64,000 nucleotides of DNA from an uncultured Bacteroidales bacterium (GCA_903915465.1 CAIWTA010000120.1:591-64590), one strand, 5' to 3'; positions 1 to 52,779 are shown, counted from the first letter of the stretch. The notes: generated by a model from the sequence alone, not told the origin. A program made the numbers and translations.

Positions 1-1
1 C

Positions 2-274
2 TTCGGGGATGAACCCTATTCAAAAGAGGAATTGGTCGCTGAGCTCTGTTCATCCCACCTTGCCGAGATCGCTCATCTGGAACTGAATATCCGAAACTCT
101 GCCGCTTATATCGCAGGTTGGGCATCAAAGCTCAGGGATAACCAGAAATGGATCCTCTGGGCGGCATCCAGGGCAGAGAAAGCCGCTGATCACATCCTGG
201 GAATCGTTTCCGAGGAACCCATTCCGTCTGATTCTTCAGAAGTTGAAACCCTTGAGCCTGCAATGGCTGGATAA
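2..274 (+). CDS. C-terminal part of an ArdC-like antirestriction / zincin-like metallopeptidase protein (5' end outside window)
   Basis: The frame is open from the window edge. FGDEPYSKEELVAELCSSHLAE...NSAAYIAGWASKLRDNQKWILWAASRAEKAADHIL resembles the conserved ArdC C-terminal block (EELVAEL..., SAAYI.sWl..Lk.d....f.AAs.AqkAAD). Confidence 0.6.
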   Translation, partial: FGDEPYSKEELVAELCSSHLAEIAHLELNIRNSAAYIAGWASKLRDNQKWILWAASRAEKAADHILGIVSEEPIPSDSSEVETLEPAMAG

Positions 275-297
275 CAAATCTTTCTTCAAACCGGCGT

Positions 298-326
298 GCC
301 AGATGCCAATATAAGTCTCAAGGGCA
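298..326 (+). promoter_or_regulatory. Conserved leader box, copy 1 (gccagatgccaaTataagtcTCAagggca), ending 14 nt before the ATG at 340
   Basis: A near-identical 29-mer lies at 887-915 with identical spacing to the next start codon. Confidence 0.45.
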
Positions 327-339
327 TGAGCATTCTATA

Positions 340-555
340 ATGTCACATACACATTACTCAGGAGATCCAAGACAGATCACAGCCCGTTTCCCATCAACCT
401 GTCACACCTGCAGCAAACCGATCAAAAAGGGTGAAACCATTATCTACTGGCCAAACGGCAAAAAGGCCGGCCATTACGACTGCGATATCCAGGATTACCG
501 CCAGTCAATAGCTTCCTTCGAAGACGAAGATCGCTATAATAATGTTTATCACTGA
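340..555 (+). CDS. Small hypothetical protein with CxxC...HxxC (zinc-ribbon-like), ICE-associated
   Basis: 71-aa ORF preceded by the leader box and followed by the hairpin+T terminator at 563-597. Cys/His pairs are STCHTC and GHYDCD. Confidence 0.5.
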   Translation: MSHTHYSGDPRQITARFPSTCHTCSKPIKKGETIIYWPNGKKAGHYDCDIQDYRQSIASFEDEDRYNNVYH

Positions 556-562
556 TTCACCT

Positions 563-597
563 GGAGAGCCTCTTTGATGAAGGTTCTCCCTTTTTTA
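563..597 (+). terminator. Rho-independent terminator
   Basis: ggagagcct (563-571) pairs with aggttctcc (581-589) with one G-U pair, followed by cttttttt. Confidence 0.55.
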
Positions 598-886
598 ATG
601 CTTTTTTTCTTTGATAGTCCGGGACAAAGAAAAACCGCCAGGGAAAAAAGAAATCCAATGTTCCGGGGAACTTTTTGTGAAAAAGTACCAAAAACCCCAC
701 CCACAGTTACTCAAAATTTGTCGCAAAGTTAAACTCATGAAAATATCGTGTCACTAAACGCTGCCTCCTGACAGAACCGCAGCCCGTTGGGTTCATTCAT
801 TCCGTTGCACGGAAGTGACCTGAACGTTTGTTCCAGAATTTTCATTCCGTTTGTTGTCAGGGCATAAATTTTTTTAACCCTGGCGA

Positions 887-915
887 GCCAGATGCCAAAA
901 TAAGTCCGCAGGGCA
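887..915 (+). promoter_or_regulatory. Conserved leader box, copy 2 (gccagatgccaaAataagtcCGCagggca), ending 14 nt before the ATG at 929
   Basis: See copy 1. 25 of 29 positions are identical and the spacing to the ATG is the same. Confidence 0.45.
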
Positions 916-928
916 GCGGCGATCTGAA

Positions 929-1366
929 ATGACAAAAGTAACGAACACCGCACTGAAACCGGGTAACGGAAAACCCAATGCCGAAGAAATGGCAATCGTG
1001 AAGACCATCCTCAATCCGGCAGAAAACAAAACCGAAGAGAAAAAGCCGGTTTTCCAGATTGAACCCGAAAAGCCGGTCATTCCCGCTCCTGAGCCAAAGA
1101 AGGAAATGACCATGATTGAGAAGATCCTCAAGATCGAAAACCTCCAGCTCGTCATTGAAAAGAGAGCCAAGCTGGTGCAGACTCGCTCCGAACTGGATCG
1201 CTTCCAGATCTCATCCAATGACTTTAACTGCACGATGCGGCTGAACGATTCAGACGGAAATGTCTTCACCACCAGCTTCACCCCGGGCATCAAGAAAGTC
1301 ATCGAGTTTCTCAAGACCTCATTCGATTCAAGCATCACGGAAGCTGAAAACAAGATTACCTTCTGA
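929..1366 (+). CDS. Hypothetical protein (ICE-associated; Lys/Glu/Pro-rich N-terminus, helical C-terminus)
   Basis: 145-aa ORF with the leader box upstream and a strong terminator downstream. Preferred over the antisense ORF 874-1353. Confidence 0.55.
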   Translation: MTKVTNTALKPGNGKPNAEEMAIVKTILNPAENKTEEKKPVFQIEPEKPVIPAPEPKKEMTMIEKILKIENLQLVIEKRAKLVQTRSELDRFQISSNDFNCTMRLNDSDGNVFTTSFTPGIKKVIEFLKTSFDSSITEAENKITF

Positions 1367-1392
1367 ATCTTTTCCTTGCGTCAAGATTCCGG

Positions 1393-1425
1393 CGTTCCGG
1401 CTAAGGCCGGAACGTCTATTTTTTG
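1393..1425 (+). terminator. Rho-independent terminator
   Basis: cgttccggc (1393-1401), loop taag, gccggaacg (1406-1414), then tctatttttt. Confidence 0.65.
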
Positions 1426-1643
1426 GTCGTAAAGTGATTCAATGAATTAAGGACAAGCCATCACTATTGATCATCTTATTGAATCACTGGTTTTTGATTT
1501 CTCGGTTTTTTACGCTAATCAGAAATGATAAAAATAGGAAAAATGGATTATTCAATTAAGGAAAGAAAGAATATGTTTACGTAAATTCGCAATGTTATGA
1601 AAGATGGTTTTTCATTGAATTTGATAACTTAAGTGTACTTCAT

Positions 1644-2276
1644 ATGTCAGCAACTAACTATGAATACGATGTTTTTATCAGTTATAGAAGAACTGATACT
1701 GGGACTTTTTGGGTCAAGGAGTATTTTAAACCACGATTAGAGGAAGAAATACAACAAGCTTATGGAGGACCTGTTAAAATATTTTTCGATTCAGCTGATA
1801 TCCCAGTCGGTGCAAATTGGCCTAATACAATAAAAACAGCGTTGGCTACTTCACGTTGCATTGTCCCTGTGTTTTGTGGATTGTATTTTCAATCAGAGTG
1901 GTGTGTACGTGAGTTTGCGGTGTTTCATAATCGTCAGGAGATATTAAATCAGGGGAGAGTCATTAATCCTTATGAAATAATTCTCCCTGTTCTGGTAAGA
2001 GATGGCAATCACCTTCCACAGTCAGTCAATAGAATATTTAAATCTGTATTGAAAGATTATTTTACCGGTTGTGTTTCGTTTCGAACTTGCCCAGATTATA
2101 GAGATTTTGAAAGGGAGATTGTCAAACTTGCAGATGAAATTAGCAATGCGTTGAAAACGAAAACCCCAGTATGGGACAAGAGGTGGCTTTTAAATGAATG
2201 GTTAGATGAAGTCCCCATTAATCATTTTTTAAATCAAAGACCAGTTGTACTCCAAGAAAATCCTACATTAAAATGA
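1644..2276 (+). CDS. Stand-alone TIR domain protein
   Basis: YDVFISYRRTD start motif and SEWCVREF helix with a candidate catalytic Glu (codon 90, nt 1911-1913). The stop overlaps the next start (ATGA at 2273-2276). Confidence 0.85.
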   Translation: MSATNYEYDVFISYRRTDTGTFWVKEYFKPRLEEEIQQAYGGPVKIFFDSADIPVGANWPNTIKTALATSRCIVPVFCGLYFQSEWCVREFAVFHNRQEILNQGRVINPYEIILPVLVRDGNHLPQSVNRIFKSVLKDYFTGCVSFRTCPDYRDFEREIVKLADEISNALKTKTPVWDKRWLLNEWLDEVPINHFLNQRPVVLQENPTLK

Positions 2277-5149
2277 GCAATATAATTACTTTCTATTCAT
2301 ACAAAGGAGGCGTTGGAAGATCAATGGTTCTTGCCAACGTTGCAACGATGTTATCCAAATGGGGATTCAAAACCTTGATTGTCGATTTTGATTTGGAAGC
2401 CCCCGGTCTCCATTATTTTTTTAATTCTCAAATCAGAAATTTCAATGATCTTGGAAAAAGAAAGGGCATGTTGAATTTCTTAAATCAGGATCATAAGAAC
2501 CCTCGATTAAAATGGCAAGACCTTGTTGTTCCCATAATTATTCAACCAACTAGCAAGGAAAAAAACATCAATCCCAGTACAATTGATTTAATTCTTGCTG
2601 GTAACAAAGGTGAATCAAGTTATACCAATGAATTAAAGAAGTTTAATGCAAGAAATTTCTATAAGAACCATAATGGTAGTATGGTTATCGAAAAATTACG
2701 TGATGATTGGAAAAATAGCTATGATTTTATCCTTATTGATTCAAGAACTGGAGTCACAGATATTGGTGGAATATGCACTATTCAATTACCGGATATTCTC
2801 GCTACTTTGTTTACCGCAAATGAACAGGGTTGGATAGGAATAAAAGACATTACTGTTAAAGCAATAAAAAATCACAATGACATTCCTTTTGAAAGGGAAA
2901 GGTTAAAAGTTTTTCCCATTCCGACACGTATTGATAATACTGAAAAATTACTTACTGAAGAATGGCTTAAAAGATTTTCTGAAGAGGTAAAGTCAATTAT
3001 AGGCAATTGGATACATACTGAAATAAACATTAGGCAATTTATTGATAAAATTTATGTGCCTTATATCCCTTATTATAGCTTTGGTGAAAGACTTTCTGTT
3101 CTTGATGGTACATCAGATCCTAAGGGTATTGGCTATGCTTTAACAACAATAGCTTCATTACTTGCAAATAGATTAGTGGATAGCAAGCTGTTTTTTGATT
3201 CTCGTGATGAGTATATTCGGAAGATTGAAAATTCAATCAAAGAGAGACAGTCAGCAGAAATAATGAATGATAGTAGATTAAATACAGTTAAACTATCTGT
3301 TATTGGAGAATCCGCCTCAGGAAAATCCACATTAATAGACGCCTTGTTTTTCAATAATATTCAATCATATGATTTGGAGTCAACACATGGTTTAGAGACA
3401 ACAAAATATATTTTTAAATCAAAAAATGAAAATTACCGCATTAATATATGGGATTTTGGAGGGCAGGAAATTTATTCGGGCATCTATCAATTTTTCCTCA
3501 CAAAAGGATCGATAATATTGTTAGTGCTAGATTCTAGAAACATAGAACTCTCTTTACAAATCGAAAACTGGTTGGCAACCATAAATTTGTTAACAGAATC
3601 TAGTCAAATTTTTATATTCCTTAATGACAAAATAAAATCATCCAGACCCACTGGTTTCGATTCATTAATGTTTCAAAAAAATTATCCAAACGTTAAAGTG
3701 TTTACAGGAAGTATTCGTGAAACCGAGACAACTGAATTATTAAGAGATGAAATAGAAAAGGTTGTCACATCTTTTCCTTCTGTTATTATACCAAGGTCTT
3801 GGAGAAACATTCTAGACAAAATTGATAATATTGTTGATTCCTGCTCATATATTTCCCTCGCTGAATTTTCAAATATATGTAAAGAGTTTGGTGGAATTAA
3901 TGATAGTGATCAAGTGTTAGAAATAACTTCCTTATTTCATAGTAATGGTACTATAATTCATTATCAGGATGATTCTTATCTGAAAGATTATATTTTTATT
4001 CGTATAGGTTTAATAATAAAAGCTGTTTATAAAATATTTGAAGATAGTAATTTGATTAACGTTTCTAAAGGGTATTTTGATCAAAAGGACCTTGAAAAAA
4101 TTTTGAATGATGAGGAATTTAAGGACCTTCATTATGCAATTTTAAAATTAATGTTAAAATTTGAACTTGCTTATACATTTAATAATCAACAATTAGAGAA
4201 ATATCTTATTCCACAATTATTATCGCCAATACAACCCGATTATAATTGGGAATCGTTTAACACGTTGCACTTTATTTACCAATATGAAGTTGTTCCCAAG
4301 GGGCTACTAAATAAACTAATTATCAGGTTGCAGCATTTGATTACTGATTCTAAACTATTATGGAGAAATGGTTTTGTTGTAACATATGAAGAGAGCAAGG
4401 GTGAGGTTATTGAAGATTTTTCCAAAAGAAAAATTATGGTAAAAACTAATGGCATAAATAGTAAAAGCTTATTAATTAATATTTCAAATGAAATTGATAC
4501 GATTAACAATGAATACGCTTTGCTTAAATGTGAAAAATTGATACCATGTAATTGCAAAGAATGTCAATCAATAGAAAATCCATTCTATTTTAGTTATGCT
4601 ACTCTGAATAGTTATTTGCAGCACAAAATGCATGAGGTACCTTGTCCGAACTCATCTTTAATGATATCAATTCGAGATCTCATTGAACCATTTTCAAAAT
4701 TTGAAGTAGGTAAAAACAGAAAGAAATCACCAGTGAATATTTTCATATCATATGCTCATGAAGACCTTGATATGAAGAATAGTATTGAAAAATATTTATG
4801 GCCTCTTAAAAAAGATCAAAATGTTTCTATTTGGTTCGACCAGATGATTGAACCTGGAACAAATTGGAAAAATGAAATTCAACAAAAAATGTCAGATTCA
4901 GATATAATAATTTGCATTGTAAGTGCTGATTATTTAAGTAAAGATTATATTTGGGAATTGGAATTAAAAGATGCCTATGCGCGAAACAAAAAGATAATTC
5001 CAGTAATCTTAAGGCCTTGCCTTTGGGAGGATACCATTTTAAACAATTTTAGTGCGTTGCCTAATCAAGGAAAGCCGATTTCAAAATTTGAAGATAAAGA
5101 TGAAGCCTTCAATGAAATTGCGAAAAACCTAAAAATATTAATTGAATAG
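2273..5149 (+). CDS. Multidomain protein: KGGVGR-type ParA/MinD-like ATPase - Roc GTPase - COR - Cys cluster - TIR
   Basis: aa 1-300: SYKGGVGRS, VDFDLEAPGL, FILIDSRTG. aa 338-500: GESASGKST, WDFGGQE, LNDK. aa 505-755: COR-like (LFHSNGTIIHYQDD, LIPQLL, LWRNGFVV). aa 753-791: CxxxxxCxCxxC...C. aa 820-958: TIR (VNIFISYAHED, DYIWELEL). Confidence 0.85.
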   Translation: MSNIITFYSYKGGVGRSMVLANVATMLSKWGFKTLIVDFDLEAPGLHYFFNSQIRNFNDLGKRKGMLNFLNQDHKNPRLKWQDLVVPIIIQPTSKEKNINPSTIDLILAGNKGESSYTNELKKFNARNFYKNHNGSMVIEKLRDDWKNSYDFILIDSRTGVTDIGGICTIQLPDILATLFTANEQGWIGIKDITVKAIKNHNDIPFERERLKVFPIPTRIDNTEKLLTEEWLKRFSEEVKSIIGNWIHTEINIRQFIDKIYVPYIPYYSFGERLSVLDGTSDPKGIGYALTTIASLLANRLVDSKLFFDSRDEYIRKIENSIKERQSAEIMNDSRLNTVKLSVIGESASGKSTLIDALFFNNIQSYDLESTHGLETTKYIFKSKNENYRINIWDFGGQEIYSGIYQFFLTKGSIILLVLDSRNIELSLQIENWLATINLLTESSQIFIFLNDKIKSSRPTGFDSLMFQKNYPNVKVFTGSIRETETTELLRDEIEKVVTSFPSVIIPRSWRNILDKIDNIVDSCSYISLAEFSNICKEFGGINDSDQVLEITSLFHSNGTIIHYQDDSYLKDYIFIRIGLIIKAVYKIFEDSNLINVSKGYFDQKDLEKILNDEEFKDLHYAILKLMLKFELAYTFNNQQLEKYLIPQLLSPIQPDYNWESFNTLHFIYQYEVVPKGLLNKLIIRLQHLITDSKLLWRNGFVVTYEESKGEVIEDFSKRKIMVKTNGINSKSLLINISNEIDTINNEYALLKCEKLIPCNCKECQSIENPFYFSYATLNSYLQHKMHEVPCPNSSLMISIRDLIEPFSKFEVGKNRKKSPVNIFISYAHEDLDMKNSIEKYLWPLKKDQNVSIWFDQMIEPGTNWKNEIQQKMSDSDIIICIVSADYLSKDYIWELELKDAYARNKKIIPVILRPCLWEDTILNNFSALPNQGKPISKFEDKDEAFNEIAKNLKILIE

Positions 5150-5194
5150 TTATATATATTTCGATTAATCACCCTGAGAAACAATAATAAAATT

Positions 5195-5863
5195 ATGAAT
5201 TTTCTAATTGTTATGAGTATGACAAATAGCTATTATTTTTTTTTTAGCGATCAACAAGCTGAAACAAAATATTCAATTGAGCCACTTTGGTGGTTGTTAA
5301 TAATTGTAGCTGCTATTATCTTGGTTGGGGGTCTATATTGTTTTTTTAGTAGAAAGAAGTATCGGATTGTGAATATGGGCTTCGAGGTATCTGGAAGCCC
5401 CAAATTTACTTTTAATGTTGAAAGGAATACCCAAAATTTATATATAGCGAATCGCATCTATATGGAGTTAATTACTCGTAAAGCCGCACTTGAATTTGAA
5501 GAGGACAAAGATGTTATTATAGAAGTATATAATTCATGGTATAAACTATTTAACATTATTAGAGAAGAAATCAAAAATGTGCCTGGCGATTATTTAATAA
5601 ATCATGATTCATCAAAAGCTCTTATAGGTTTAACTGAAAAAATTTTAAACCTAGGCCTACGACCTCATTTAACAGCCTATCAGGTAAAATTTAGAAAATG
5701 GTATACTTCGGAAACAAAAAAGCTTACAAACATGAACCTTACTCCACAAGAAATTCAAAAAACGTATCCCTATTATGCTGATCTTGTTGTTGATTTGAAA
5801 AAAGTAAATAAAGTATTAATTGATTATTCAAAAGATTTATTAACTCTTATTCAGAAAAATTAG
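5195..5863 (+). CDS. Membrane-anchored protein of unknown function (one TM helix, helical C-terminal domain)
   Basis: 222-aa ORF 45 nt after the ROCO-TIR gene, with the same strand and AT-rich composition. TM helix LWWLLIIVAAIILVGGLYCFF is followed by SRKKYR. The start could be an internal Met. Confidence 0.6.
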   Translation: MNFLIVMSMTNSYYFFFSDQQAETKYSIEPLWWLLIIVAAIILVGGLYCFFSRKKYRIVNMGFEVSGSPKFTFNVERNTQNLYIANRIYMELITRKAALEFEEDKDVIIEVYNSWYKLFNIIREEIKNVPGDYLINHDSSKALIGLTEKILNLGLRPHLTAYQVKFRKWYTSETKKLTNMNLTPQEIQKTYPYYADLVVDLKKVNKVLIDYSKDLLTLIQKN

Positions 5864-6027
5864 TAGTATTGTAGTCTTTTTTTAATTATCTTCCTATAGA
5901 AATGTTTTCCATCGATTTGATTCAACGAGAATTTAGTTGTTTCATGCTTTTATGGATTTTAACTGATAGAAACTAGTCAATTATCTTTTCACGATTGAAA
6001 AATCACCTATTGCACTCTAATGTTATT

Positions 6028-6963
6028 TTACAAAATAGATGTATTAAAAATTATATTATCAAACAGTATCTTATTTCCAAATTTAGCGTAAAGTATTTTA
6101 TTTTCAGTTTCATCTAAATAGGTTCGACCAAGATCATCTTTTGCAATGCTTACTTGAATGCCTGAACTTTCTAATATCAAGACGTCTGGATTTATTAAAT
6201 AAGCTGCAGCAAGTGGATCCCATGCAAAATATAAATTATCATATATCCAATTCTCAACATTTTTAAGAATTGAGTATGTTATTTTGTTTTTTCTATTCTT
6301 CCATTTACTAAATACTAAATAGCTCTTATCAATTTTAATGGAATTAGACGCATCTAAAGGAACCAAAATAATATTTTTTAAATAGCTTAGACAAATCTTA
6401 GCTGCCAAAGGATCACAATAAAAGTTCCATTCTGAAAACCTGTTTTTTGTTTCATTAATTTCATTGTCGAAAAGATTTCCTTCAACACTAATTGCTCCAC
6501 CCATTATGATTGTGGTAATGGATCTGAGCTTTCCCATCCTATCATTAACAATAAGATTTTCAATATTTGTCAACGGTCCTAAAGTCAGTAGAAACTGATT
6601 ATTCGCTTTGAAAGAATTTAAAATATTTATAGCATCAAATTCTAGAATTCGTTTATTTCCTGAATTAATATTTAATACTTTATATCCTACTTCAGTTGAT
6701 TGCTGCTTCCAACTTTTAGGAAAGAAATTAGTCTTACCTAGTGAATCACTTTTGCCTATATAAATAGGGGTATTTATATGCCCATAATAATCTAGAAGTC
6801 TTCGAATTATTTGAGCACCATCCTTAGGTTCAGTCAACCCATGAACACATGACACACCTATAATTTCAATATTTCTTGAATTTAATAATAGATCTATGGC
6901 GATTAGATCATCAGTTCCACAATCGGTATCTATAAAGACATGTTTTACTTCAACTGAGCACAT
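6028..6963 (-). CDS. Inosine-uridine-preferring nucleoside hydrolase (IUNH) family protein
   Basis: N-terminal VFIDTDCGTDDLIAIDLLL matches the DxDxxxDD fingerprint of IUNH-family ribohydrolases. Length is 311 aa. Confidence 0.8.
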   Translation of the reverse strand: MCSVEVKHVFIDTDCGTDDLIAIDLLLNSRNIEIIGVSCVHGLTEPKDGAQIIRRLLDYYGHINTPIYIGKSDSLGKTNFFPKSWKQQSTEVGYKVLNINSGNKRILEFDAINILNSFKANNQFLLTLGPLTNIENLIVNDRMGKLRSITTIIMGGAISVEGNLFDNEINETKNRFSEWNFYCDPLAAKICLSYLKNIILVPLDASNSIKIDKSYLVFSKWKNRKNKITYSILKNVENWIYDNLYFAWDPLAAAYLINPDVLILESSGIQVSIAKDDLGRTYLDETENKILYAKFGNKILFDNIIFNTSIL

Positions 6964-7058
6964 AAATGGGTAGATAATTATGATTTTATATATTTAGAAG
7001 AATATTCTAAATTCGAGAGTAACATGAATTGTTATATTAAGTTGTAAAAATCAGTGAA

Positions 7059-8480
7059 TTAATCGAGTCTCCAGATTTTATTAATTTGCTGGAATTGCGT
7101 TATGATATAATCAAATGGTAAATTCTTTCCGATTTTTGCAATTTCAATATTTAGCACATTTGATGGGACAAGTAAGTCAGGATGACCCCATGGTCTTTCG
7201 ACTTCTTGTCTTGGACTAAAAATCCAAATTGTTTTAAGACCAAGATTTTTTGCAGGTATAATATCTTTTTCTAATGAGTCACTTATAATAGCTATTTCAT
7301 CAGGAGGGAAATTGAATTCTTCAATTACCTTAAGCAGCAATTCTATCTTTAGTCCTGTTTCATCTGTACTATCACCAGACACAATTAAATCAAATAGATC
7401 TGGTTTTAAATCAAGCAATTGCATTCTTAAATCGAGGGTAGAAGGGGAAGCGTTAGTAGCTATGGCTGTTTTAATTCCTTTTATTTTCGCTTTGAAAAGA
7501 TATTCCTGAACCCCAGGGAATAAATGGATATAGCGTGAATTTTCATAATGAACCCTTTTAAAATCTTTAAATGAAAGACCAAGGGTCAAGCAATGTTGGA
7601 GATAGTCGTACCATAACCTATCCTTTTTATCAAAAAGATCTTTTAGCCATTTGTGATATTCTTTAGCCTCTTCTTTATTTCTGGGTATACTAACGCACAA
7701 GGCATCATCAAATGAATCTTCTTCGACCAATGTTTTACGCCAATCGAAGATTATTAGTTTTGGCAAGGTTGGTGGTGTAAGATAAATATCGTGGTTATTG
7801 AGGTTAAAATTTGGTGAATATGTTACAATTTGCCAAATCCTTTCTTTAGATATTTGAGTATATGATGAAATTGCCTCAATACTAAAACGATTTTCACATA
7901 CTATTGCAAATTGTATTGCTGCCTCTTCAGGAAAAAGAAATGCTCTATTTTCCAAAGTAATTATTCCCAAATGAGCATCAGATTTAACATCAAAGAAGAG
8001 TTTTGGAGGGATTACTATTTTATTTAGTTTATCTATTCTGTCACTACGAAGAAATTGCTTTAGTAAATCAAACCTATTTATTGTAACCGTTGGTTTACCT
8101 TTAAGTTGCTGTACGAGTTTTTCCAAATTCAGCGAATAGTCATCACCAAATATGTCAAAACACTTTCTATGGGAAAGAATTGGAGGTAGGGGCACAAAAT
8201 CCAGTCTTGCAGGAATAACCTTTATTGTGGAATTGAGGTGTTCTTTCATTAAGGCAGTTGCCCATTCCTCTTGTATCCAATTATTTTTCTCAGTATTTTT
8301 TGAGAAAAAAACAAGTAAATATTTAGCATTATTTATAGCCTTCGAAATTGACAAAGGAATTGAATCTCCGAACAAAATCTCATCTTCATCAAGCCAAAAA
8401 TCAATATCATATAAACGTAAGTCCTTTGCGATTTTCCTTATTGCGTTTATGTCAGCTGATGCATGTGAGATAAATATCAT
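7059..8480 (-). CDS. TIR domain - linker - HAD-superfamily hydrolase-like fusion protein
   Basis: N-terminus MIFISHASAD...NNWIQEEW (TIR). C-terminus has LIIFDWRKT (HAD motif I with Arg at D+2), IATNAS (motif II) and ISDSLEKD (motif IV). Confidence 0.8.
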   Translation of the reverse strand: MIFISHASADINAIRKIAKDLRLYDIDFWLDEDEILFGDSIPLSISKAINNAKYLLVFFSKNTEKNNWIQEEWATALMKEHLNSTIKVIPARLDFVPLPPILSHRKCFDIFGDDYSLNLEKLVQQLKGKPTVTINRFDLLKQFLRSDRIDKLNKIVIPPKLFFDVKSDAHLGIITLENRAFLFPEEAAIQFAIVCENRFSIEAISSYTQISKERIWQIVTYSPNFNLNNHDIYLTPPTLPKLIIFDWRKTLVEEDSFDDALCVSIPRNKEEAKEYHKWLKDLFDKKDRLWYDYLQHCLTLGLSFKDFKRVHYENSRYIHLFPGVQEYLFKAKIKGIKTAIATNASPSTLDLRMQLLDLKPDLFDLIVSGDSTDETGLKIELLLKVIEEFNFPPDEIAIISDSLEKDIIPAKNLGLKTIWIFSPRQEVERPWGHPDLLVPSNVLNIEIAKIGKNLPFDYIITQFQQINKIWRLD

Positions 8481-8698
8481 ATGGGATTTTTTATCAATAT
8501 TATTGTTTTATAACATTTTACATGGTAAATTTATAGAAATTTTATTGTGAATATCCAAATTCTTTATAACTATTTATATAGACCTATTAGCATAATCCTT
8601 GTATTAACCTGATTAATATATTTAAGGAATTTTGCCCTTCTTAATTCTCGAATTACACTTACACTTCGACTTCACTTTGTAAAAGGAAATTATATATT

Positions 8699-8722
8699 TT
8701 TGGATACCCATTTGGATACCCA
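8699..8722. repeat. Tandem 12-mer tttggataccca x2
   Basis: Exact tandem duplication immediately distal to the tRNA-Leu terminator, at the island edge. Confidence 0.8.
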
Positions 8723-8754
8723 AAAAAGAAAAACCCACGATTGACGTGGGTTTT
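8721..8754 (-). terminator. Rho-independent terminator of tRNA-Leu
   Basis: On the minus strand: AAACCCACG, loop TCAAT, CGTGGGTTT, then TTCTTTTTT. Confidence 0.65.
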
Positions 8755-8767
8755 AGTGGTGTTTTCG

Positions 8768-8851
8768 TACCCGGAGCCGGAATCGAACCGGCACGAGATT
8801 ACTCTCATTGGTTTTTGAGACCAACGCGTCTACCTATTCCGCCATCCGGGC
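8768..8851 (-). tRNA. tRNA-Leu (anticodon CAA), type II with long variable arm, no encoded CCA
   Basis: Reverse complement is GCCCGGATGGCGGAATAGGTAGACGCGTTGGTCTCAAAACCAATGAGAGTAATCTCGTGCCGGTTCGATTCCGGCTCCGGGTA. It has an acceptor stem, D loop, anticodon stem TTGGT/ACCAA with loop CTCAAAA, and T arm GGTTCGATTCC. Confidence 0.9.
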
Positions 8852-8960
8852 GAAGTGAGTGTGTGTTTGAGTGTGATGGAAGTATTGGTGTGGAATGTGT
8901 GAGAAGTGCATATGGGTGAAGTAAGTGTATGTTTAGGTGTGTTTTAGCTTCCGTCCGTGG

Positions 8961-8984
8961 CCCCTCCCCCAATTGGGGGAGGGG
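8961..8984. repeat. Perfect G/C palindrome cccctcccccAATTgggggagggg
   Basis: 10-bp stem with a 4-nt loop. A related copy lies at 23142-23179. Confidence 0.7.
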
Positions 8985-9119
8985 AACGGGGTGGAGGCAG
9001 GGCTGCAAAAGTAAACAAATTTTCTTTTCAAACACAAACCTTACTACATTGGCATAGTTTAATTTGCAGGATTTCAAAGAATAGCTTAATTTCGCGCCCG
9101 GATTTAAACCTCCTTTGGC

Positions 9120-10058
9120 ATGCCAAATCAAGTTAAAATTTTCTCTGGCCGGGCCATGAACTTCCTGGCACAAAAGATCGCAAAAAATTACGGTACCGAC
9201 CTTGGAACTGTTGTTGTCACGGATTTTTGTGACGGTGAATTCCAACCATCATTCGAAGAAAATATCAGGGGAAACGACATTTTTATTGTGCAGTCTACTT
9301 TCTCACCAGCCAGCAACCTGTTAGAACTACTCATGCTGATTGATGCAGCCAGAAGAGCCTCGGCGAGAAATATCATTGCCGTGATTCCCTATTTCGGATA
9401 TGCCCGCCAGGACCGCAAAGATAAACCCCGTGTTTCTATAGCTGCCAAATTGGTGGCAAATCTGCTTTCTACTGCCGGCGTTCAGCGTATCATCACCATC
9501 GACCTGCATGCCGACCAGATCCAGGGGTTCTTTGACGTCCCCGTCGACCACCTTTATGCTTCATCCATCTTTTTGCCTTATCTCCGCAACCTTAACCTGC
9601 CCAAGCTTACAATGGCTTCTCCTGACACAGGTGGAACACGAAGGGTGGCTGCATATGCAAAGTTCCTGAATACCGACTTTGTAATCTGTTACAAACAACG
9701 ATCTAAACCGAATGAAGTAGATAAAATGGCGTTGGTGGGTGAAGTCGAAGGACGTGATGTGATCCTTGTCGACGACATCGTTGATACTGCCGGTACATTG
9801 ACCAAATCAGCAGAAATCATCATGGCCAATGGCGCCAATAGCGTCCGGGCAATCTGTACGCACCCCATACTATCAAATAATGCGGTCGAAACAATCGAGA
9901 AGTCAGTTTTATCTGAACTCGTGGTCACAGATACTATTCCTCTGCAAAAAGAATGCAAAAAAATCAAAGTCCTTACTACCGCCAGCCTCTTCGCCGAAGT
10001 CATTAAACGCGTGGAAAGCCATGAGTCTATTAGCTCTTTGTTCAAATTTGGAGAATAA
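9120..10058 (+). CDS. prs: Ribose-phosphate pyrophosphokinase
   Basis: Full-length match to the Prs pattern (IFSG..., VIPYFGYARQDRK, DLHADQIQGFF, ILVDDIVDTAGT). Confidence 0.95.
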   Translation: MPNQVKIFSGRAMNFLAQKIAKNYGTDLGTVVVTDFCDGEFQPSFEENIRGNDIFIVQSTFSPASNLLELLMLIDAARRASARNIIAVIPYFGYARQDRKDKPRVSIAAKLVANLLSTAGVQRIITIDLHADQIQGFFDVPVDHLYASSIFLPYLRNLNLPKLTMASPDTGGTRRVAAYAKFLNTDFVICYKQRSKPNEVDKMALVGEVEGRDVILVDDIVDTAGTLTKSAEIIMANGANSVRAICTHPILSNNAVETIEKSVLSELVVTDTIPLQKECKKIKVLTTASLFAEVIKRVESHESISSLFKFGE

Positions 10059-19345: not shown

Positions 19346-21742
19346 TTAGCGCATTATGATAAGTTTCTTTACTTCTGAAGTACCAAAAGATCCCTGCATT
19401 CTGTAGAAATAGATTCCGGAAGGGTAGTTTTCAGTAGAAAAATCAACTATTCCAGAATTATTATTAACCACAAACTTTTGGAGTGTGATTCCTCTGGAAT
19501 CCATGAGGTCAAGTTCTGCAGGTAAATTACCAGGAATCCGATATCTGACCTGAACGTTCACGGAGGCAGGATTCGGAAAAGGGCCGGAAAGATAAACCGG
19601 TGATTTCTTTATATCTTCCAATCCTACACCGGTCATATCAATAACAGAAACCGAGATATCATCGAAATAGTAACCATCGGCAGTGGATGAAGCATCGCTT
19701 CTCAGAGTAAACCGTATTTTGATATCCTTATTGGCATAACCATCTAAAACGACTTCTTCATTCACCCATGTTCTTTGTTTCCCGTCATATACTGGTTTCC
19801 CGTCATCTTCATTAGCTGAGCCGATCTTTGTATAACGTCCTTTTTGTGGAATGAAATGTATTCCATTGTCACTGGAAACCAGTACCTGCACATAATCAAA
19901 TCCTCTTTCAACGTCCCATTTACTCCAATAGTTGATAATTGCAACAGGAGAATCCTTGAGATCAATGTTATTCCAAGTTGTGACCGAAACATCCGTATTG
20001 TTGCTGTAGTTCCCGGTGGGAGAATCGGTGATGGAGCCTGTGGGTGTATAGAAGGAAGTGTTGGAAATATTCCATTTCGGGGAGGTCCATTTTGTAAACT
20101 GGTTGCAGCTGTCCTGGAAAACAACTAGTTTCGGTCCGAAGTATTTGGTTACTGTGTCTCTGAAAATATAGGGTCCGTTACTCAGTTTAAGGATGTATTT
20201 AAATTCACTTCCGGTCGTGACATTTGCGGATAGTGTGTAGGCGATAGAATCTGTATAGACCTGAAATTGCGCCGGATTCATGAAAAACTTTGGGGTTCCA
20301 ACGTGGGTGATCTGGTTTGTATCCATTGGAGCGATTGATACAGTATAATTGGCTGGCGATTCAATCCCGTAACGTTCAAATTCAAACTTGAAATATCCCT
20401 GCCGGTCAGAAACAATCGATTGTTGAATATCCTTAGTTTCCGCATATTTTAATGCAAGATGTGCCATCATGAGATTCTGGTACATATTTTCCTGGCAGAT
20501 AGGAATAATCCTGTCGGGAAAAGGCCAGAATCCATCGTTGTCGTTTCCGGTTTCCGGTGTATATCCAAAGAGCTTGGGTTTTGCAGTTTGTTCTCCGTAT
20601 AACCAATCGTTAATATCCCCGTTTGTAGTGTACAGCAGTTCTCCTGCAACCCCGGTAGAATACCGGTTTTGCCGTGTCATGATATCCGAAAAGTTCATGA
20701 ACAAAGCACTATCAGCCGTATATTGAATAACGTAACTCCAGGGAAAAAGAAACAGATTACCATACGTATGGTAATTCAAGGCCTCCCTAAAATGAATCTG
20801 ATTGCAGAAATCCCTGACAATCTGCGTTTCCGGTTCGGAGAATGCACTGGCACCACGGTAAGTTTCGTCGGCAGGATAAGGAGAAGATCCTATATCATCG
20901 TAACCCCAGCTGTATCCCCAGTTGCGGTTCAGGTCAACGCCATATTCGCCGCTTCCGTTATTCCTGCGGTTTTTCCGCCAAGCACCACCACCGATGGGGA
21001 AAGTCGAATGATTGTACTCGTACCCGTCAGGATTCATCACAGGTATGAAATACATTTCCAGGTTGTCAACAAGATATTTGACTTCGGGATCTGTTGCATA
21101 ATTTTCCAGCAGGTACCACATAAAAAAAATGAGTTGCTGCATTCCTGCCGGTTCACGGGCATGGGTAAGCGCATTATACAAAATCTTGGGTTCCGCTTCG
21201 GTCGTATTGGGGTTTTTGGAAATTTTCACATAGTAAATTAGCCTTCCTTCAATGGAAGTTTGGGAGGAAACTTCCATTTTGGCTGTTATCAGTGCAGGAT
21301 ATAACAACACCATGCTGTCAAGTTCATTCATCACCTCCTGTAAAGTGAAGAAACCACCCATTGATCCAAAATCAAAGTGATCCGGAACTTTATACCCACT
21401 GACTGAAGGATTATCTGGTTGTCGCGATTTATTATTCCTGACATCTTTATTCTTTTTGATCCACTCGGCATTCCGGGTTTCAATGTACTTTGAATAATCT
21501 TCCTTCAGGATATCTACATGGAATCCGGCATCGATGACTTTTTGCAGATCCTTTTCAGACAAAATAGTTTGCCAGTAACCCTCTTTATGGAACGCACCAT
21601 TATCAAAAGGTATACCAAGTTTTGCAAGATTAATCAGCTCTTCCCGCTGGGTATGGATCTTCACTTCAGAAAACATTGGTGTCTGGCAAAAGCCGTTGAG
21701 ATAAAAGGAGATCAGAAAGAGTAAGAGAATACTTTTTTTCAT
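19346..21742 (-). CDS. M14-family zinc carboxypeptidase with T9SS C-terminal sorting domain
   Basis: HAREPAG zinc-site motif. The signal peptide starts at MKKSILLLF. The C-terminal FPNPA...YFYRM...KLIIMR is a T9SS CTD. Confidence 0.8.
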   Translation of the reverse strand: MKKSILLLFLISFYLNGFCQTPMFSEVKIHTQREELINLAKLGIPFDNGAFHKEGYWQTILSEKDLQKVIDAGFHVDILKEDYSKYIETRNAEWIKKNKDVRNNKSRQPDNPSVSGYKVPDHFDFGSMGGFFTLQEVMNELDSMVLLYPALITAKMEVSSQTSIEGRLIYYVKISKNPNTTEAEPKILYNALTHAREPAGMQQLIFFMWYLLENYATDPEVKYLVDNLEMYFIPVMNPDGYEYNHSTFPIGGGAWRKNRRNNGSGEYGVDLNRNWGYSWGYDDIGSSPYPADETYRGASAFSEPETQIVRDFCNQIHFREALNYHTYGNLFLFPWSYVIQYTADSALFMNFSDIMTRQNRYSTGVAGELLYTTNGDINDWLYGEQTAKPKLFGYTPETGNDNDGFWPFPDRIIPICQENMYQNLMMAHLALKYAETKDIQQSIVSDRQGYFKFEFERYGIESPANYTVSIAPMDTNQITHVGTPKFFMNPAQFQVYTDSIAYTLSANVTTGSEFKYILKLSNGPYIFRDTVTKYFGPKLVVFQDSCNQFTKWTSPKWNISNTSFYTPTGSITDSPTGNYSNNTDVSVTTWNNIDLKDSPVAIINYWSKWDVERGFDYVQVLVSSDNGIHFIPQKGRYTKIGSANEDDGKPVYDGKQRTWVNEEVVLDGYANKDIKIRFTLRSDASSTADGYYFDDISVSVIDMTGVGLEDIKKSPVYLSGPFPNPASVNVQVRYRIPGNLPAELDLMDSRGITLQKFVVNNNSGIVDFSTENYPSGIYFYRMQGSFGTSEVKKLIIMR

Positions 21743-21900
21743 GTGTATATGGATTGAATAACAGGATTGGAAGGCTAACATTCAACAGAAGAACGAAAAG
21801 CTATCCTTTCTCATTGATAATCAGTATTAACGAAGGTTCAATCAGATATGTGGTTTGGAATAATACCCTGTTATACCGAGTGTGCAAAGTTCAGCAAAAT

Positions 21901-31758: not shown

Positions 31759-32664
31759 CTAACGAAATTTCACCAGTTTTTTATTTGTCGTATTGTTGTC
31801 TTTGTCAATAAATGTCAGGATGTATGTTCCGCTTTGCAAATTGTCAATAGTAATTTTTGTCAGGTTGCTGGTTTGTTGCTGAAAAATGATTTTCCCAAAC
31901 AAGTCTGAAAGCCGTATTTCCTGAACACTTATTGATTTGTCAAATTCAACTGTGAATGAACTGTTCGAAGGATTCGGATAAACTCTTACCGGATCAATTT
32001 TTTTCCCTATTGATTCTGTTGACGTAATAAGATCGCAATTGACTGATGTGCCGGGATATAGTGTATTTCCATTTTGACTGAAGCAGGTAGTAGAAATGTC
32101 GGCCCAATCCACAACTCCGCCGGGGGAATCCTCTATCAGCCCATAGGTCGAACCTACTCCTTCAATGAAATAAATGTTATAACCGGAATTGATTTCCCAC
32201 CTTTTACGGTAATCAGCACCCACCAGAACCGAATCAATAGACACGACAACATCTTTTGTGGTAAGGTTGGTTTCAATATATCCTCGTACCGTATCTCCAA
32301 CCTGCATGGCAAAATCGTACAGCAGTTGTTCGGTGTTAGCATCAGGAGGAATAATGTAAACTTTCCTGTTCAGAACGTCCTGCCGGATCGCCCCACGATA
32401 ACCAGCAGAAGTTAATGTTGTTGTCGATTTTACTGAAGACACGACATAAGGAATAAACAACTGATGATAAGGGAGCCCATTAATAAGTGTATCTCCCGGT
32501 ATGATGATTGAATAAAATTCCATAAGCGCAGGGCCCGGGTAGCCCATGAGTGTCAGCTGCATATTCCATTGGGCGTTACTTTCAGGGAATGGATAGTAAA
32601 CTGATTTCTGCGCCACTGATGAGAGAGTAATTAATACCGTGATAAAAAGTAAAAGTTTTTTCAT
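31759..32664 (-). CDS. Secreted protein with T9SS C-terminal sorting domain, function unknown
   Basis: Signal peptide MKKLLLFITVLITLSSVAQ and CTD VYPNPSNSSFTVEF...GTYILTF...KLVKFR. Confidence 0.7.
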   Translation of the reverse strand: MKKLLLFITVLITLSSVAQKSVYYPFPESNAQWNMQLTLMGYPGPALMEFYSIIIPGDTLINGLPYHQLFIPYVVSSVKSTTTLTSAGYRGAIRQDVLNRKVYIIPPDANTEQLLYDFAMQVGDTVRGYIETNLTTKDVVVSIDSVLVGADYRKRWEINSGYNIYFIEGVGSTYGLIEDSPGGVVDWADISTTCFSQNGNTLYPGTSVNCDLITSTESIGKKIDPVRVYPNPSNSSFTVEFDKSISVQEIRLSDLFGKIIFQQQTSNLTKITIDNLQSGTYILTFIDKDNNTTNKKLVKFR

Positions 32665-32833
32665 AGCTGGTGGTTTTGATAAGTTGCTTAACAATATTTT
32701 GTGCGTTACTATATTTTACCGAAATTACCACACCCTTCCTGGCCATTTTCGAATTTGATCTGAAAAAAATATACCCCTGATGGTAAATCAGAAACGTCAA
32801 TTATGCAGCCAGCTTAGCATTGACGGAGTAAAA

Positions 32834-34718: not shown

Positions 34719-35172
34719 GGAGTTACAAGAATAACACTCTCTTTTAGATATTTCTCATTCAAATGTAATCTAATTTATACAAAGGCACACAAAGCCATTA
34801 ATTCTTTTTCTTCATGAAAAATTCAATCCCTGATTTACATGACCTTATTATCATCTGTTTCAGAAAGATCTTTCAGCTTATTCAAAGCCAGTGGGAATTT
34901 CTTTGTCATAAAGTCATACATGTTTACTTCTTTGTCTAACTTCAATATAGCAGGAAAATACTCTTTATTAATCAGGAATTATTTCTCATTTTTGTAGGAA
35001 GTAATAAGGGAAGAACAGAAAAAGTTTCTCTTGCATTTAAAAGAATGTGAATTTTGCTTTACCTTTAGAAATGAATCTATTTACAAAATGTTTATGAAAA
35101 ATCTTTGAATTGACCTTCTTAACTAGTCATGAGCCAAAAAATTTAATAAACGAATATTAAGCTTTGAAATTT

Positions 35173-36393
35173 ATGAAAAAACATGTCTGTTTATCAGTAA
35201 TTTTTGCTTGCATTTTTTGCTCTGTTAATGCTCAATGGCAACCATTATCTGGATATTCATCAACGGAAGGTGCATCTTCCCTGATTGTCCTGGGCGATAC
35301 TATGATTGCATCAAGTACTGGTAATTCCTACGATATGACTCCGGGCTTTCTCATTTCATCAGATCATGGGAATACATGGACGGTTAAGAATAACAGTTTG
35401 GGAATTGGAGCTTACCCTTTGTTTGCGGATGGAGAATATCTGTATGCTGGCACAAACGGACAAGGCGTCAATTTATCAACAGATAAAACTGCCACCTGGA
35501 CAACTAAGAACAACGGATTGCCATCTAATTTCCAGGTACTTGATTTACTGGTAAATAATTCCGACTTCTATGTTTGTGGTTCAGGCGGTATTTTTCATTC
35601 TGCAGATAGTGCAAAAACGTGGGAAAACATTAGTTTACCGGGTACAGTTCAGGCTGCTTCTGTAATTGTCGTCGGAGATACTATTATATCAAGTTTTGTT
35701 TTTAATTCTTCTGAGGGTGTTTATAAATCCACCAATAATGGCATCAGTTGGTTACTTATAGATAGTACCACTGGCTTATCCGATACACGGATCCGTAAAT
35801 TCACAGTGTTTCACCATACCCTTTTTGCTGCATCGAATGGGGATCTGGGCTCAGGAAATGTATACATTTCAAGCGATAACGGAATCAGCTGGACAGCATC
35901 CAATGGCTTATTTGATCATGGACACAATGTACCTTTTAATTTTATCACATATTACAACACTATTTTCCTTGCAACGACCAATGGTATCTATCAATCCAAT
36001 GATTATGGATTAAACTGGACCTCTACTGGATGTGCCAACACTTTATCACTGGCAATTGTCGGAGATACTTTGTATACGGGCACAGGCTGGCATGGCATTT
36101 GGAAACGAGGGTTATCTGAATTGATCGGTGGGGTTGAAGGAATTACCGATTTCAGGAAAATGATCGTTTATCCAAATCCCTCATCTGACATGATAAATAT
36201 TGAATTGAAACAAGCTTCTTCTTTAAAAACCGCAATAGTTTCAATATACGATATCCAGGGTCAGCTACTTCTTCAGGAACATATACATAAAGAAAAAACG
36301 GAGATCAATATACGCGGTCTTGAAAAAGGTATTTACATGGTAAAACTGACGAGCAGCACCAGAACTGAAGTAATAAAATTCGTGAAGGAGTAA
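35173..36393 (+). CDS. BNR/Asp-box repeat beta-propeller protein with T9SS C-terminal domain
   Basis: Six SxDxGxTW-like boxes (SSDHGNTW, STDKTATW, SADSAKTW, STNNGISW, SSDNGISW, SNDYGLNW) and CTD VYPNPSSDMINIEL...GIYMVKL. Confidence 0.75.
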   Translation: MKKHVCLSVIFACIFCSVNAQWQPLSGYSSTEGASSLIVLGDTMIASSTGNSYDMTPGFLISSDHGNTWTVKNNSLGIGAYPLFADGEYLYAGTNGQGVNLSTDKTATWTTKNNGLPSNFQVLDLLVNNSDFYVCGSGGIFHSADSAKTWENISLPGTVQAASVIVVGDTIISSFVFNSSEGVYKSTNNGISWLLIDSTTGLSDTRIRKFTVFHHTLFAASNGDLGSGNVYISSDNGISWTASNGLFDHGHNVPFNFITYYNTIFLATTNGIYQSNDYGLNWTSTGCANTLSLAIVGDTLYTGTGWHGIWKRGLSELIGGVEGITDFRKMIVYPNPSSDMINIELKQASSLKTAIVSIYDIQGQLLLQEHIHKEKTEINIRGLEKGIYMVKLTSSTRTEVIKFVKE

Positions 36394-37285: not shown

Positions 37286-37606
37286 AGCTTTTCCTTCTTT
37301 AAAAAAGTTATTATTGGTTAAGCACACGAATGTTTGTATAGCGAAATTGACATACCGAAAAACCTGGATTATCTATATACTTCTTCAAAGATAATATTTT
37401 AATTATTTGGCATTCATAAGGAATTTTTCTCTGCGGATATCAGTGATTTCTCTGTGTAATTTTGTTTGACAGTAATGCTTTTGTGTCTTGGCGCCTTTGT
37501 GGCAGAAAACATTCATCGCCGCTAAGACGCAAAGTCGCTAATTGTACTGAATTCACTTCATAACGAAAATAAGGTCAACCTTTCATTCTGACTTCCAAAA
37601 AACCGC

Positions 37607-52704: not shown

Positions 52705-52779
52705 ATTATCTGAAGTGTTCATTTTTTCTCCTCCGAAATTGTCCGGCTTCGCTTTATTAAATGACACCCTTCCGATGTA

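Follow-up and report, generated by a model that had tools for sequence, protein, structure and literature searches.

A 64,000-nt stretch of DNA from an uncultured Bacteroidales bacterium (GCA_903915465.1 CAIWTA010000120.1:591-64590), referred to here as the window, carries an A/T-rich block at positions 1430-8729 that we interpret, with moderate confidence, as a horizontally acquired anti-phage island. It lies between a segment of the integrative and conjugative element (ICE) type and the 3' side of a tRNA-Leu(CAA) gene, and would combine a Roco-gated, Thoeris-like TIR module with a further small operon. The genes form two convergent operons: operon A consists of open reading frames (ORFs) 1, 2 and 3 on the plus strand, and operon B of ORF5 followed by ORF4 on the minus strand. 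We infer the anti-phage function from domains and gene neighborhoods.

A preliminary description of this DNA had reported four TIR domains in five ORFs. The five ORFs and their domain content stand, but the TIR domains number three, as they also did in that description's own list of genes. Scans of all five ORFs with Pfam, PADLOC and NCBIfam place them at residues 10-125 of ORF1, 823-920 of ORF2 and 2-123 of ORF5, and each of the three TIR_2 domains is above the Pfam cut-off. All of them keep the catalytic glutamate (E90 in ORF1, E897 in ORF2 and E72 in ORF5), which occupies the sole invariant acidic column among ten aligned TIRs, published Thoeris ThsB proteins included.

The likeness to Thoeris is seen most directly in the genomic neighborhoods of the ORF3 family. 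ORF3 (5195-5863, plus strand) encodes a 222-aa protein with one transmembrane (TM) helix (residues ~32-55) and a conserved helical domain (residues 79-220), as seen in an AlphaFold2 (AF2) model with core pLDDT >85. It belongs to no family in Pfam, PADLOC, NCBIfam or PHROG, and comparison of its fold with the PDB gave nothing better than an E-value of 0.2, the matches being generic helical bundles. There are more than 1000 homologs with 50-65% identity, all without annotation, and the family alignment contains 45 invariant columns, many of them Arg, Lys or His (among these R77, R87, R95, K96, R123, K127, R156 and H158). In a set of 80 genomes the family ranges over Bacteroidota, Nitrospirota, Planctomycetota, Clostridia, Acidobacteriota, bacteria of the candidate phyla radiation and methanogenic archaea. 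Members are also present on five IMG/VR viral contigs (L184-L188).

A custom TIR profile was run on every ORF of the 80 ORF3-family loci. The gene at position -1 relative to the ORF3 homolog is a TIR gene in 46/79 loci (58%) and the gene at -2 in 34/78 (44%), compared with 19% at +1, 12% at +2 and at most 2% at a distance of five genes or more; overall, a TIR lies no more than two genes from the ORF3 homolog in 68 of the 80 loci. When the 63 same-strand genes directly upstream were searched with Pfam, 43 ThsB_TIR, 13 TIR_2 and 9 Nmad2 matches were obtained, and the 59 genes one step further upstream gave 28 ThsB_TIR and 24 TIR_2. These loci also hold type I restriction-modification (R-M), methylase and STAND-WD40 genes. 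An adjacency peak of this kind, at -1 and -2, is characteristic of Thoeris-type effector genes. The block keeps the usual TIR-TIR-partner order, since its -1 gene, ORF2, ends in a TIR and its -2 gene, ORF1, is a TIR. As judged from this arrangement, the Roco module appears to be grafted onto the second TIR of that order, and ORF3, which starts 45 nt past ORF2 on the same strand, is a candidate Thoeris-like effector.

Identification of ORF3 as DUF6650, DUF2270 or SLATT was rejected: no named Thoeris effector family matches ORF3 or 41 aligned members of its family at E<=5. Two of the loci have an unusual gene content. In a metagenome-assembled genome of the Heliobacteriaceae (L142, 4044-7934), the gene directly upstream of the ORF3 homolog encodes a 1296-aa nSTAND1-WD40 protein and not a small TIR; it provides a second example of a large NTPase beside the ORF3 family. 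In Puteibacter caeruleilacunae (SJCO01000022.1; L086/L088), genes for HMUDK_hel (the helical domain of 5-hydroxymethyldeoxyuridine, 5-hmdU, DNA kinase), a thymidylate-synthase-like protein, DUF1599 and Nmad2 are found among four TIR genes and an ORF3-family gene. This mixture of genes, together with Nmad2 at -1 in 9 of 63 loci, suggests that base-modification-type enzymes are linked to TIR modules.

ORF2 (2273-5149, plus strand; 958 aa) carries, according to NCBIfam, Pfam and PADLOC, a KGGVGR ParA/MinD-like domain followed by Roc, COR-A, COR-B and TIR domains. The N-terminal domain (residues 3-194; 2279-2854) scores 148.3 bits with the NCBIfam model AAA_KGGVGR (NF047398; cut-off 90). Its motif reads K11-G-G-V-G-R16-S17 (KGGVGRS), with Arg in place of the Walker-A lysine of ParA/MinD, and by both score and motif ORF2 is a true member of the KGGVGR ATPase family. 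The replacement of Lys by Arg suggests that this domain is probably nucleotide-binding or dimerizing and does not hydrolyze ATP. In line with this, MinD/ParA-like domains of conflict systems have been predicted to be catalytically inactive (Kaur et al. 2020, PMC7159879). The Roc GTPase domain (residues 340-451; 3290-3625; Pfam 1.4e-18, 67.7 bits, cut-off 27) has an intact GxxxxGKS P-loop and is followed by COR-A (residues 507-650; 3791-4222; 1.2e-29, 103.5 bits, cut-off 35.3), COR-B (residues 663-805; 4259-4687; 1.5e-31, 109.6 bits, cut-off 27) and the TIR (4739-5032; Pfam TIR_2 3.3e-17, PADLOC ThsB1 3.9e-31). The nearest solved structures are the Roco proteins of Methanosarcina barkeri (3e-34) and Chlorobium tepidum and then LRRK2, the order by entry being 4wnr, 3dpu, 6hlu and LRRK2. 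ORF2 is thus a prokaryotic Roco protein with a TIR output.

ORF1 (1644-2276, plus strand) is a small TIR protein of 210 aa (Pfam TIR_2 1.6e-13). Its stop codon overlaps the start codon of ORF2 in the sequence ATGA at 2273-2276, and the two genes are translationally coupled. The possibility that ORF1 is FxsC of an FxSxx-COOH system was rejected, the NCBIfam FxsC_Nterm score being 59.4 bits vs a cut-off of 130 and no radical-SAM or peptide genes being present. The same pair of genes is found elsewhere. On two metagenome contigs (L081 and L082), relatives of ORF2 with 37-40% identity are preceded by a small TIR of 208-222 aa, 46-49% identical to ORF1, its stop codon sharing bases with the start codon of the KGGVGR-Roc-COR gene; TIR and ATPase parts are overall 46-58% identical. 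Agaribacillus aureus (L107) has an ORF1-like TIR ahead of a KGGVGR-Sel1-ankyrin protein, with an ORF3-family gene ~1.5 kb from this pair. Taken together, these loci indicate a stable unit in which a small TIR is paired with a KGGVGR-NTPase protein whose C-terminal part varies.

We know of no description of a conserved small upstream TIR partner of KGGVGR proteins, and a literature search on KGGVGR and PRTase-CE returned nothing. KGGVGR family members are often fused to TIR, TPR or STAND domains, and LRR-Roc-COR-TIR proteins are common in cyanobacteria. Full-length KGGVGR-Roc-COR-TIR relatives of ORF2 are few (P0009, P0014 and P0020, with 27-29% identity), and GTDB genomes contain no close relative.

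Roc-COR proteins such as CtRoco and LRRK2, and likewise ParA/MinD-like proteins, dimerize in a nucleotide-dependent manner, and TIR enzymes such as SARM1 and plant TNLs need self-association to form their active sites. On this basis, a phage cue would drive assembly of the ORF2 TIR. As the switch, ORF2 would place its C-terminal TIR, probably along with ORF1, in an active assembly, and the TIRs would then cleave NAD+ and yield an ADP-ribose-derived signal, plain NAD+ depletion being the alternative. ORF3 would bind this signal through its conserved basic residues, oligomerize and damage the membrane, and the infected cell would be stopped. A role of ORF3 as membrane effector is suggested by its TIR linkage, its TM anchor and the analogy with ThsF, ThsG and ThsH of the Thoeris survey discussed below. 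The ORF5-ORF4 pair might perhaps be a nucleotide or NAD-metabolite processing module. It could act as a second effector, destroying NAD or nucleotide breakdown products, or as a built-in pair of enzymes that matures or clears the TIR signal.

ORF5 (7059-8480, minus strand; 473 aa) joins a TIR (8112-8477; Pfam TIR_2 3.5e-22) to a winged-helix-like linker (residues ~170-235; 7776-7973) and an atypical HAD domain (residues 241-420; 7221-7760; Pfam HAD_2 8.5e-15). The AF2 model (pLDDT 91.7) gives the linker its winged-helix-like assignment and confirms the HAD fold, and the TIR is predicted to be catalytically competent. A word-indexed search with ORF5 found itself only. An exhaustive HMMER search among 1.84 billion representatives found no other protein with the full architecture, its TIR part and its linker+HAD part having separate relatives. 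The closest relatives of the linker+HAD part (26-30% identity over ~300 residues) have an N-terminal PRTase-CE (PF24390), HTH or glycosyltransferase domain. The HAD subfamily has the motif I FDW[S/R]xTLVDE and keeps the nucleophile Asp (D246 in ORF5) as well as motifs II-IV. A published function for PRTase-CE-linker-HAD proteins was not found in the literature.

ORF4 (6028-6963, minus strand; 311 aa), starting 95 nt downstream of ORF5 on the same strand, is a nucleoside hydrolase of family PF01156 (Pfam IU_nuc_hydro 8.6e-39, 134.4 bits, cut-off 34.2). Its N-terminal DxDxxxDD motif is intact (D12, D14, D18 and D19 in DTDCGTDD, residues 12-19) and aligns to DHDGNKDD of the IAG nucleoside hydrolase (IAG-NH) of T. 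brucei. The closest solved structures are purine-specific IAG-NHs (1.9e-20). To our knowledge, ORF4 is the only PF01156 enzyme that sits within a TIR gene cluster. Another member of this family, XopQ, hydrolyzes the TIR signal 2' cyclic ADP-ribose (2'cADPR) to ADP-ribose and disables type VI Thoeris (bioRxiv 10.64898/2026.06.15.732069), and PF01156 enzymes can thus act on TIR products. Its sequence does not support an assignment of ORF4 as XopQ-like, as its PDB sequence matches include no XopQ structure even at E<=10. ORF4 also matches phrog_8702, a phage protein family without assigned function (E 1.9e-18). PF01156-like phage enzymes are possible anti-Thoeris enzymes.

The composition of the block sets it apart from the rest of the window. 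Its G+C is 0.306 (1440-8720), against 0.413 for 8852-64000 and 0.468 for 1-1439, with a sharp break at both borders; the preliminary description had put it at about 30%, between richer flanks. In 479 windows of the same size outside the block G+C ranges from 0.387 to 0.434 with a standard deviation of 0.013, which places the block ~8 standard deviations under their mean. The base-composition-normalized tetranucleotide correlation with the remaining window, a check called for in the same description, is 0.54 at 2501-7500 and 0.65 at 5001-10000, and at least 0.875 in each 5-kb window wholly outside the block. The compositional deviation of the block therefore exceeds G+C alone.

Both borders are marked by terminator-like hairpins, as had been described. 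The left one (1391-1416, plus strand) has an 11-pair stem with 8 GC pairs, followed by TATTTTTTGG with the T-tract reaching 1426. It lies 3' of a gene for a 145-aa protein of the flank, and G+C falls from 0.456 to 0.362 across it. The right one (8754-8730, minus strand), detected in a hairpin scan, lies downstream of tRNA-Leu(CAA). This tRNA gene, also noted before, is at 8767-8851 (ARAGORN; Rfam tRNA 58.8 bits), and as it is on the minus strand its 3' end points at the block. Deviant composition and adjacency to a tRNA 3' end, the two features of a tRNA-associated island, are thus both found here. The Rfam scan gave the tRNA only, a weak sX6 match at 1299-1438 being under the family threshold and taken as chance.

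On the left, outside the island, positions 32-274 (plus strand) encode the C-terminal part of an ArdC-type protein, as previously suggested (Pfam MPTase-PolyVal, 27.5 bits, exactly at the cut-off). The full-length protein, of 304 aa with ArdcN and MPTase-PolyVal domains, is encoded on the ENA contig ERZ1426822, and the left-flank ArdC-type gene is of the ICE/plasmid type. On the right, the genes were named prs, ctc and pth in the preliminary description, and the prs product served as the search query for relatives, the nearest genomes of the collection having Prs 63-72% identical. In relatives L001 (Prs 69% identical) and L007 (63%), tRNA-Leu(CAA) lies upstream of prs in the same orientation, and this direct adjacency is the ancestral arrangement. 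The island is absent at the site in both of these distant relatives. The 3' side of the tRNA is occupied by ordinary chromosomal (housekeeping) genes, an S41 peptidase gene in L001 and DHDPS/aldehyde dehydrogenase/proline racemase genes in L007, in neither case with a G+C dip.

Three further contigs with comparable DNA carry the island at 99.65-100% identity, and all of them stop inside it. ERZ1426822, known from gene records alone, encodes identical proteins for ORF2, ORF3 and the 145-aa flank gene, with gene order unchanged, and is estimated from its length to extend ~18 nt past the tRNA. Contigs L174 and L175 come from separate assemblies and break off at one and the same window position, 7894, within the ORF5 linker that separates TIR from HAD. 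The start of one is at 2344, and the other contains an N-gap spanning 2319-2343. These recurrent breakpoints could reflect strain variation, coverage or the same sample having been assembled more than once. The ORF1-ORF2 and ORF3 modules each recur in other phyla within defense islands. The three compositional classes (0.468, 0.306 and 0.413) suggest that the defense block joined the element separately. Every test run agreed with horizontal acquisition of the block, and the view of it as horizontally acquired defense cargo at a tRNA beside ICE-type genes, already put forward in the preliminary description, is supported by composition, by the sites of relatives and by recurrence of the modules; the defense function and the integration mechanism are what we infer.

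Several observations weigh against this interpretation. The ORF2 relatives on L081 and L082 end after COR-B, without a C-terminal TIR, and no homolog of ORF3, ORF4 or ORF5 is found nearby, which limits the ORF2-ORF3 link to near-identical copies of the island and, loosely, the A. aureus locus. The TIR of ORF2 has no tblastn similarity to the TIRs preceding ORF3 homologs; that of ORF5 has it. In operon B, motif I of the HAD domain is missing the acid/base Asp, the +2 position being Arg in ORF5 (D246-W-R), Ser in most relatives and never Asp, and the chemistry of this subfamily may differ from that of ordinary HAD phosphatases. The 7 HAD-family loci examined contain no nucleoside hydrolase, and neither a TIR nor a HAD was found in the 7 loci of ORF4 relatives (25-31% identical, the only relatives retrieved), so the ORF5-ORF4 pairing is drawn from the arrangement in this block only. 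As for the borders, there are no direct repeats bounding the island, and surrounding repeats are at chance level only. A second copy of the tRNA 3' segment, which the preliminary description had proposed to look for farther left, is not present in the window: the 28-nt tRNA 3' end does not recur in these 64 kb with up to 3 mismatches allowed. No integrase domain was detected in the nine ORFs scanned within 1-8480. With neither an integrase nor a tRNA-end repeat in the window, the far border is probably left of it.

The L081 and L082 relatives also bear on an explanation that we regard as possible, if rather unlikely, namely that the block is a defense island whose TIRs are NAD+-depleting executioners. 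ORF2 would then be an Avs-like sensor helped by ORF1, ORF5 a second NADase and ORF3 an unrelated or accessory membrane protein, with ORF4 and the HAD domain degrading the products further. These relatives keep the small upstream TIR while having neither the C-terminal TIR nor an ORF3-like gene, which suggests that the core pair works without an ORF3-type receiver. Likewise, the partners of winged-helix+HAD (PRTase-CE and TIR) resemble nucleotide-cleaving heads. Large NTPase-TIR fusions (Avs) are usually read as NAD+-depleting effectors and not as signal makers, a further point against our interpretation. On these grounds the Thoeris survey of Yirmiya et al. (bioRxiv 10.64898/2025.12.03.692087) left out Avs TIRs and standalone TIRs, its exclusion of NTPase-TIR fusions such as Avs being deliberate. 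However, the ORF3 family is tied to TIRs in 68/80 genomes, with the sharp -1/-2 peak that is the signature of a TIR-dependent partner. In addition, 45 nt separate ORF3 from the ORF2 TIR ahead of it, both being encoded on the plus strand, and PADLOC scores this TIR as ThsB1 at 3.9e-31.

Three other explanations appear much weaker. ORF4, and possibly ORF5, could be counter-defense cargo of the conjugative element, ORF4 destroying the TIR signals of recipients in the manner of XopQ and thereby aiding establishment. Cleavage of 2'cADPR by XopQ, which abolishes type VI Thoeris defense, the ArdC-type anti-restriction gene 1.2 kb left of the island and the match of ORF4 to phrog_8702 would fit such a role. 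We consider it quite improbable, since ORF4 has TIR genes on either side and follows one of them on its own strand, differs in DNA composition from the ICE-type flank (0.31 vs 0.47) and is nearest to purine IAG-NHs, with XopQ undetected at E<=10. Moreover, with three catalytically intact TIRs next to it, an enzyme that destroys the signal is more easily understood as a means of self-regulation than of attack. Even less probable is that no conflict system is present, and that the block is a low-G+C accessory region with a signaling GTPase, nucleoside-salvage enzymes and TIRs acting as protein-interaction modules. It is true that a HAD nucleotidase and a nucleoside hydrolase would catalyze consecutive steps of nucleotide catabolism, that NCBIfam gives weak matches to YjjG/PynA and RihC in operon B, and that no PADLOC system model spans the whole five-ORF set. 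Against this, all three TIRs keep the catalytic Glu, the ORF1-ORF2 and ORF3 modules move between phyla and have R-M and STAND genes as neighbors, the composition of the block is foreign, and the HAD subfamily is fused to conflict-type heads.

It would finally weaken our interpretation if island and chromosome had been joined chimerically during assembly at the conserved 85-nt tRNA-Leu, with the island as well as the ICE-type genes coming from another organism in the sample. This would account for the three compositional classes over the join (0.47, 0.31 and 0.41) and for the other island contigs stopping inside the island or ~18 nt past the tRNA. The only second contig that reaches the tRNA is ERZ1426822, with the limit given above, and a 30-nt pattern from the spacer right of the tRNA has no match in the JGI metagenome collection. 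Nevertheless, a chimeric join at the tRNA is unlikely, and we give it very little credence. The placement of tRNA-Leu(CAA) upstream of prs is native in L001 and L007, and foreign islands at tRNAs normally show the same compositional pattern. An identity of 85 nt also falls short of the largest k-mers that common assemblers use; L175, not necessarily made with the assembler of the window, has a k141 contig name.

The block can be compared with several known systems. With Thoeris (types I-XI) it shares the generic genomic features, TIRs with the catalytic Glu and an adjacent TIR-linked partner, here ORF3. Thoeris TIR genes lie directly upstream of a small non-TIR partner, often with two TIRs per partner. 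The partner is often a TM protein without assigned function, and the loci occur in defense islands of many phyla; ORF3-family loci are alike in all these respects. The survey by Yirmiya et al. (bioRxiv 10.64898/2025.12.03.692087) also describes multi-TIR Thoeris islands with several TM or unknown-function effectors, including in Bacteroidota. In contrast, ORF3 is none of SIR2-SLOG, Macro-TM, SLOG, caspase, DUF2270, DUF6650, SLATT, CMP hydrolase, TIR-SLOG, ion channel or HIT, and the place of a small ThsB next to the partner is taken by a TIR that forms the C-terminus of a 958-aa Roco protein. ORF3 may be one of the 18 unverified putative Thoeris classes of the survey. A literature search for later Thoeris types beyond the survey found none.

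ORF2 resembles the Roco proteins of C. tepidum and M. barkeri and LRRK2 in having a Roc domain with intact GxxxxGKS followed by COR-A and COR-B, and by analogy the control of an output domain through nucleotide-dependent dimerization is likely a logic that they share. It differs from them in its N-terminus, a KGGVGR ParA-like domain instead of LRR repeats, and in its output, a TIR and not a kinase. A published test of any Roco-TIR protein in defense was not found in the literature. Among KGGVGR variant AAA ATPases (NF047398), ORF2 passes the cut-off and has the motif, and its fusion of Roc-COR and TIR is rare. With Avs/AVAST it has in common a large NTPase switch fused to a TIR and the defense-island setting, but its Roc-COR is a small-GTPase module instead of a STAND ATPase, and it is accompanied by a dedicated small TIR partner and a TIR-linked membrane partner.

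ORF4 is of the same Pfam family as XopQ/HopQ1 and keeps the Ca2+-binding Asp motif, but has no detectable specific sequence relationship to them, being closest to purine IAG-NHs. XopQ, moreover, is secreted as a virulence factor and is not found alongside 2'cADPR-type Thoeris; ORF4, in contrast, shares its locus with TIR genes. ORF5 has the winged-helix-like linker and the FDW[S/R]xTLVDE HAD in common with PRTase-CE-linker-HAD proteins; their head is PRTase-CE, whereas ORF5 is the sole TIR-headed member among the representatives searched.

Some further features of the window were observed. At the right edge of the block, between the tRNA terminator and the region upstream of ORF5, a 12-nt unit, TTGGATACCCA(T/A), is present in two tandem copies (8697-8726) that also score as a hairpin. 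An inverted 21-nt copy (90%) is found at 2352-2372, just within the 5' end of ORF2; this repeat could be chance in A/T-rich DNA, or a site for a regulator or recombinase. In the left flank, a 65-nt direct repeat (281-345 and 870-934; 72% identical) looks like a duplicated promoter or 5' leader, each copy ending at the ATG of a small ORF (71 aa, 340-555, and 145 aa, 929-1366). The spacer between tRNA-Leu and prs (~8852-9005) is G/T-rich and of low complexity, and contains a perfect 24-nt palindrome, CCCCTCCCCCAATTGGGGGAGGGG, at ~8961-8984. Proteins with the type IX secretion sorting domain Por_Secre_tail are encoded at 19346-21781, 31759-32694, 35164-36393 and 36452-37327, which confirms a Bacteroidota host. 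A milder G+C dip at 51-54 kb corresponds to a polysaccharide-biosynthesis locus (52009-54021) with a methyltransferase and a Polysacc_synt flippase.

Bacteria, plants and animals all use TIR signaling in immunity, and the bacterial receivers known for TIR signals are still increasing in number. The ORF3 family is a candidate new effector family, with more than 1000 members in bacteria, the candidate phyla radiation and archaea, without annotation or PDB fold match, and it is linked in position to TIR genes as closely as known Thoeris effectors are. The Roc-COR unit is the core of human LRRK2, and few roles are known for prokaryotic Roco proteins. Bacterial Roco biology would gain a testable function from a Roco protein that has a TIR output and is accompanied by a dedicated TIR partner and a linked effector. 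Two components deserve their own follow-up, namely the ORF3 family and the Roco-TIR switch.

The site beside a tRNA and conjugative-element genes adds evidence on the movement of defense modules. Given that XopQ cleaves 2'cADPR, a nucleoside-hydrolase-family enzyme in a TIR cluster is a possible host-encoded signal processor. We put forward tentatively, and consider doubtful, the bolder idea that the block is an undescribed type of Thoeris, in which Roco/ParA-like-gated TIR signaling would act on a widespread one-TM helical-bundle receiver while a host PF01156 enzyme and an atypical HAD mature or clear the signal. If this were true, the host PF01156 enzyme and HAD would be the built-in counterpart of the pathogen's XopQ, with a role like that of ring nucleases in type III CRISPR.

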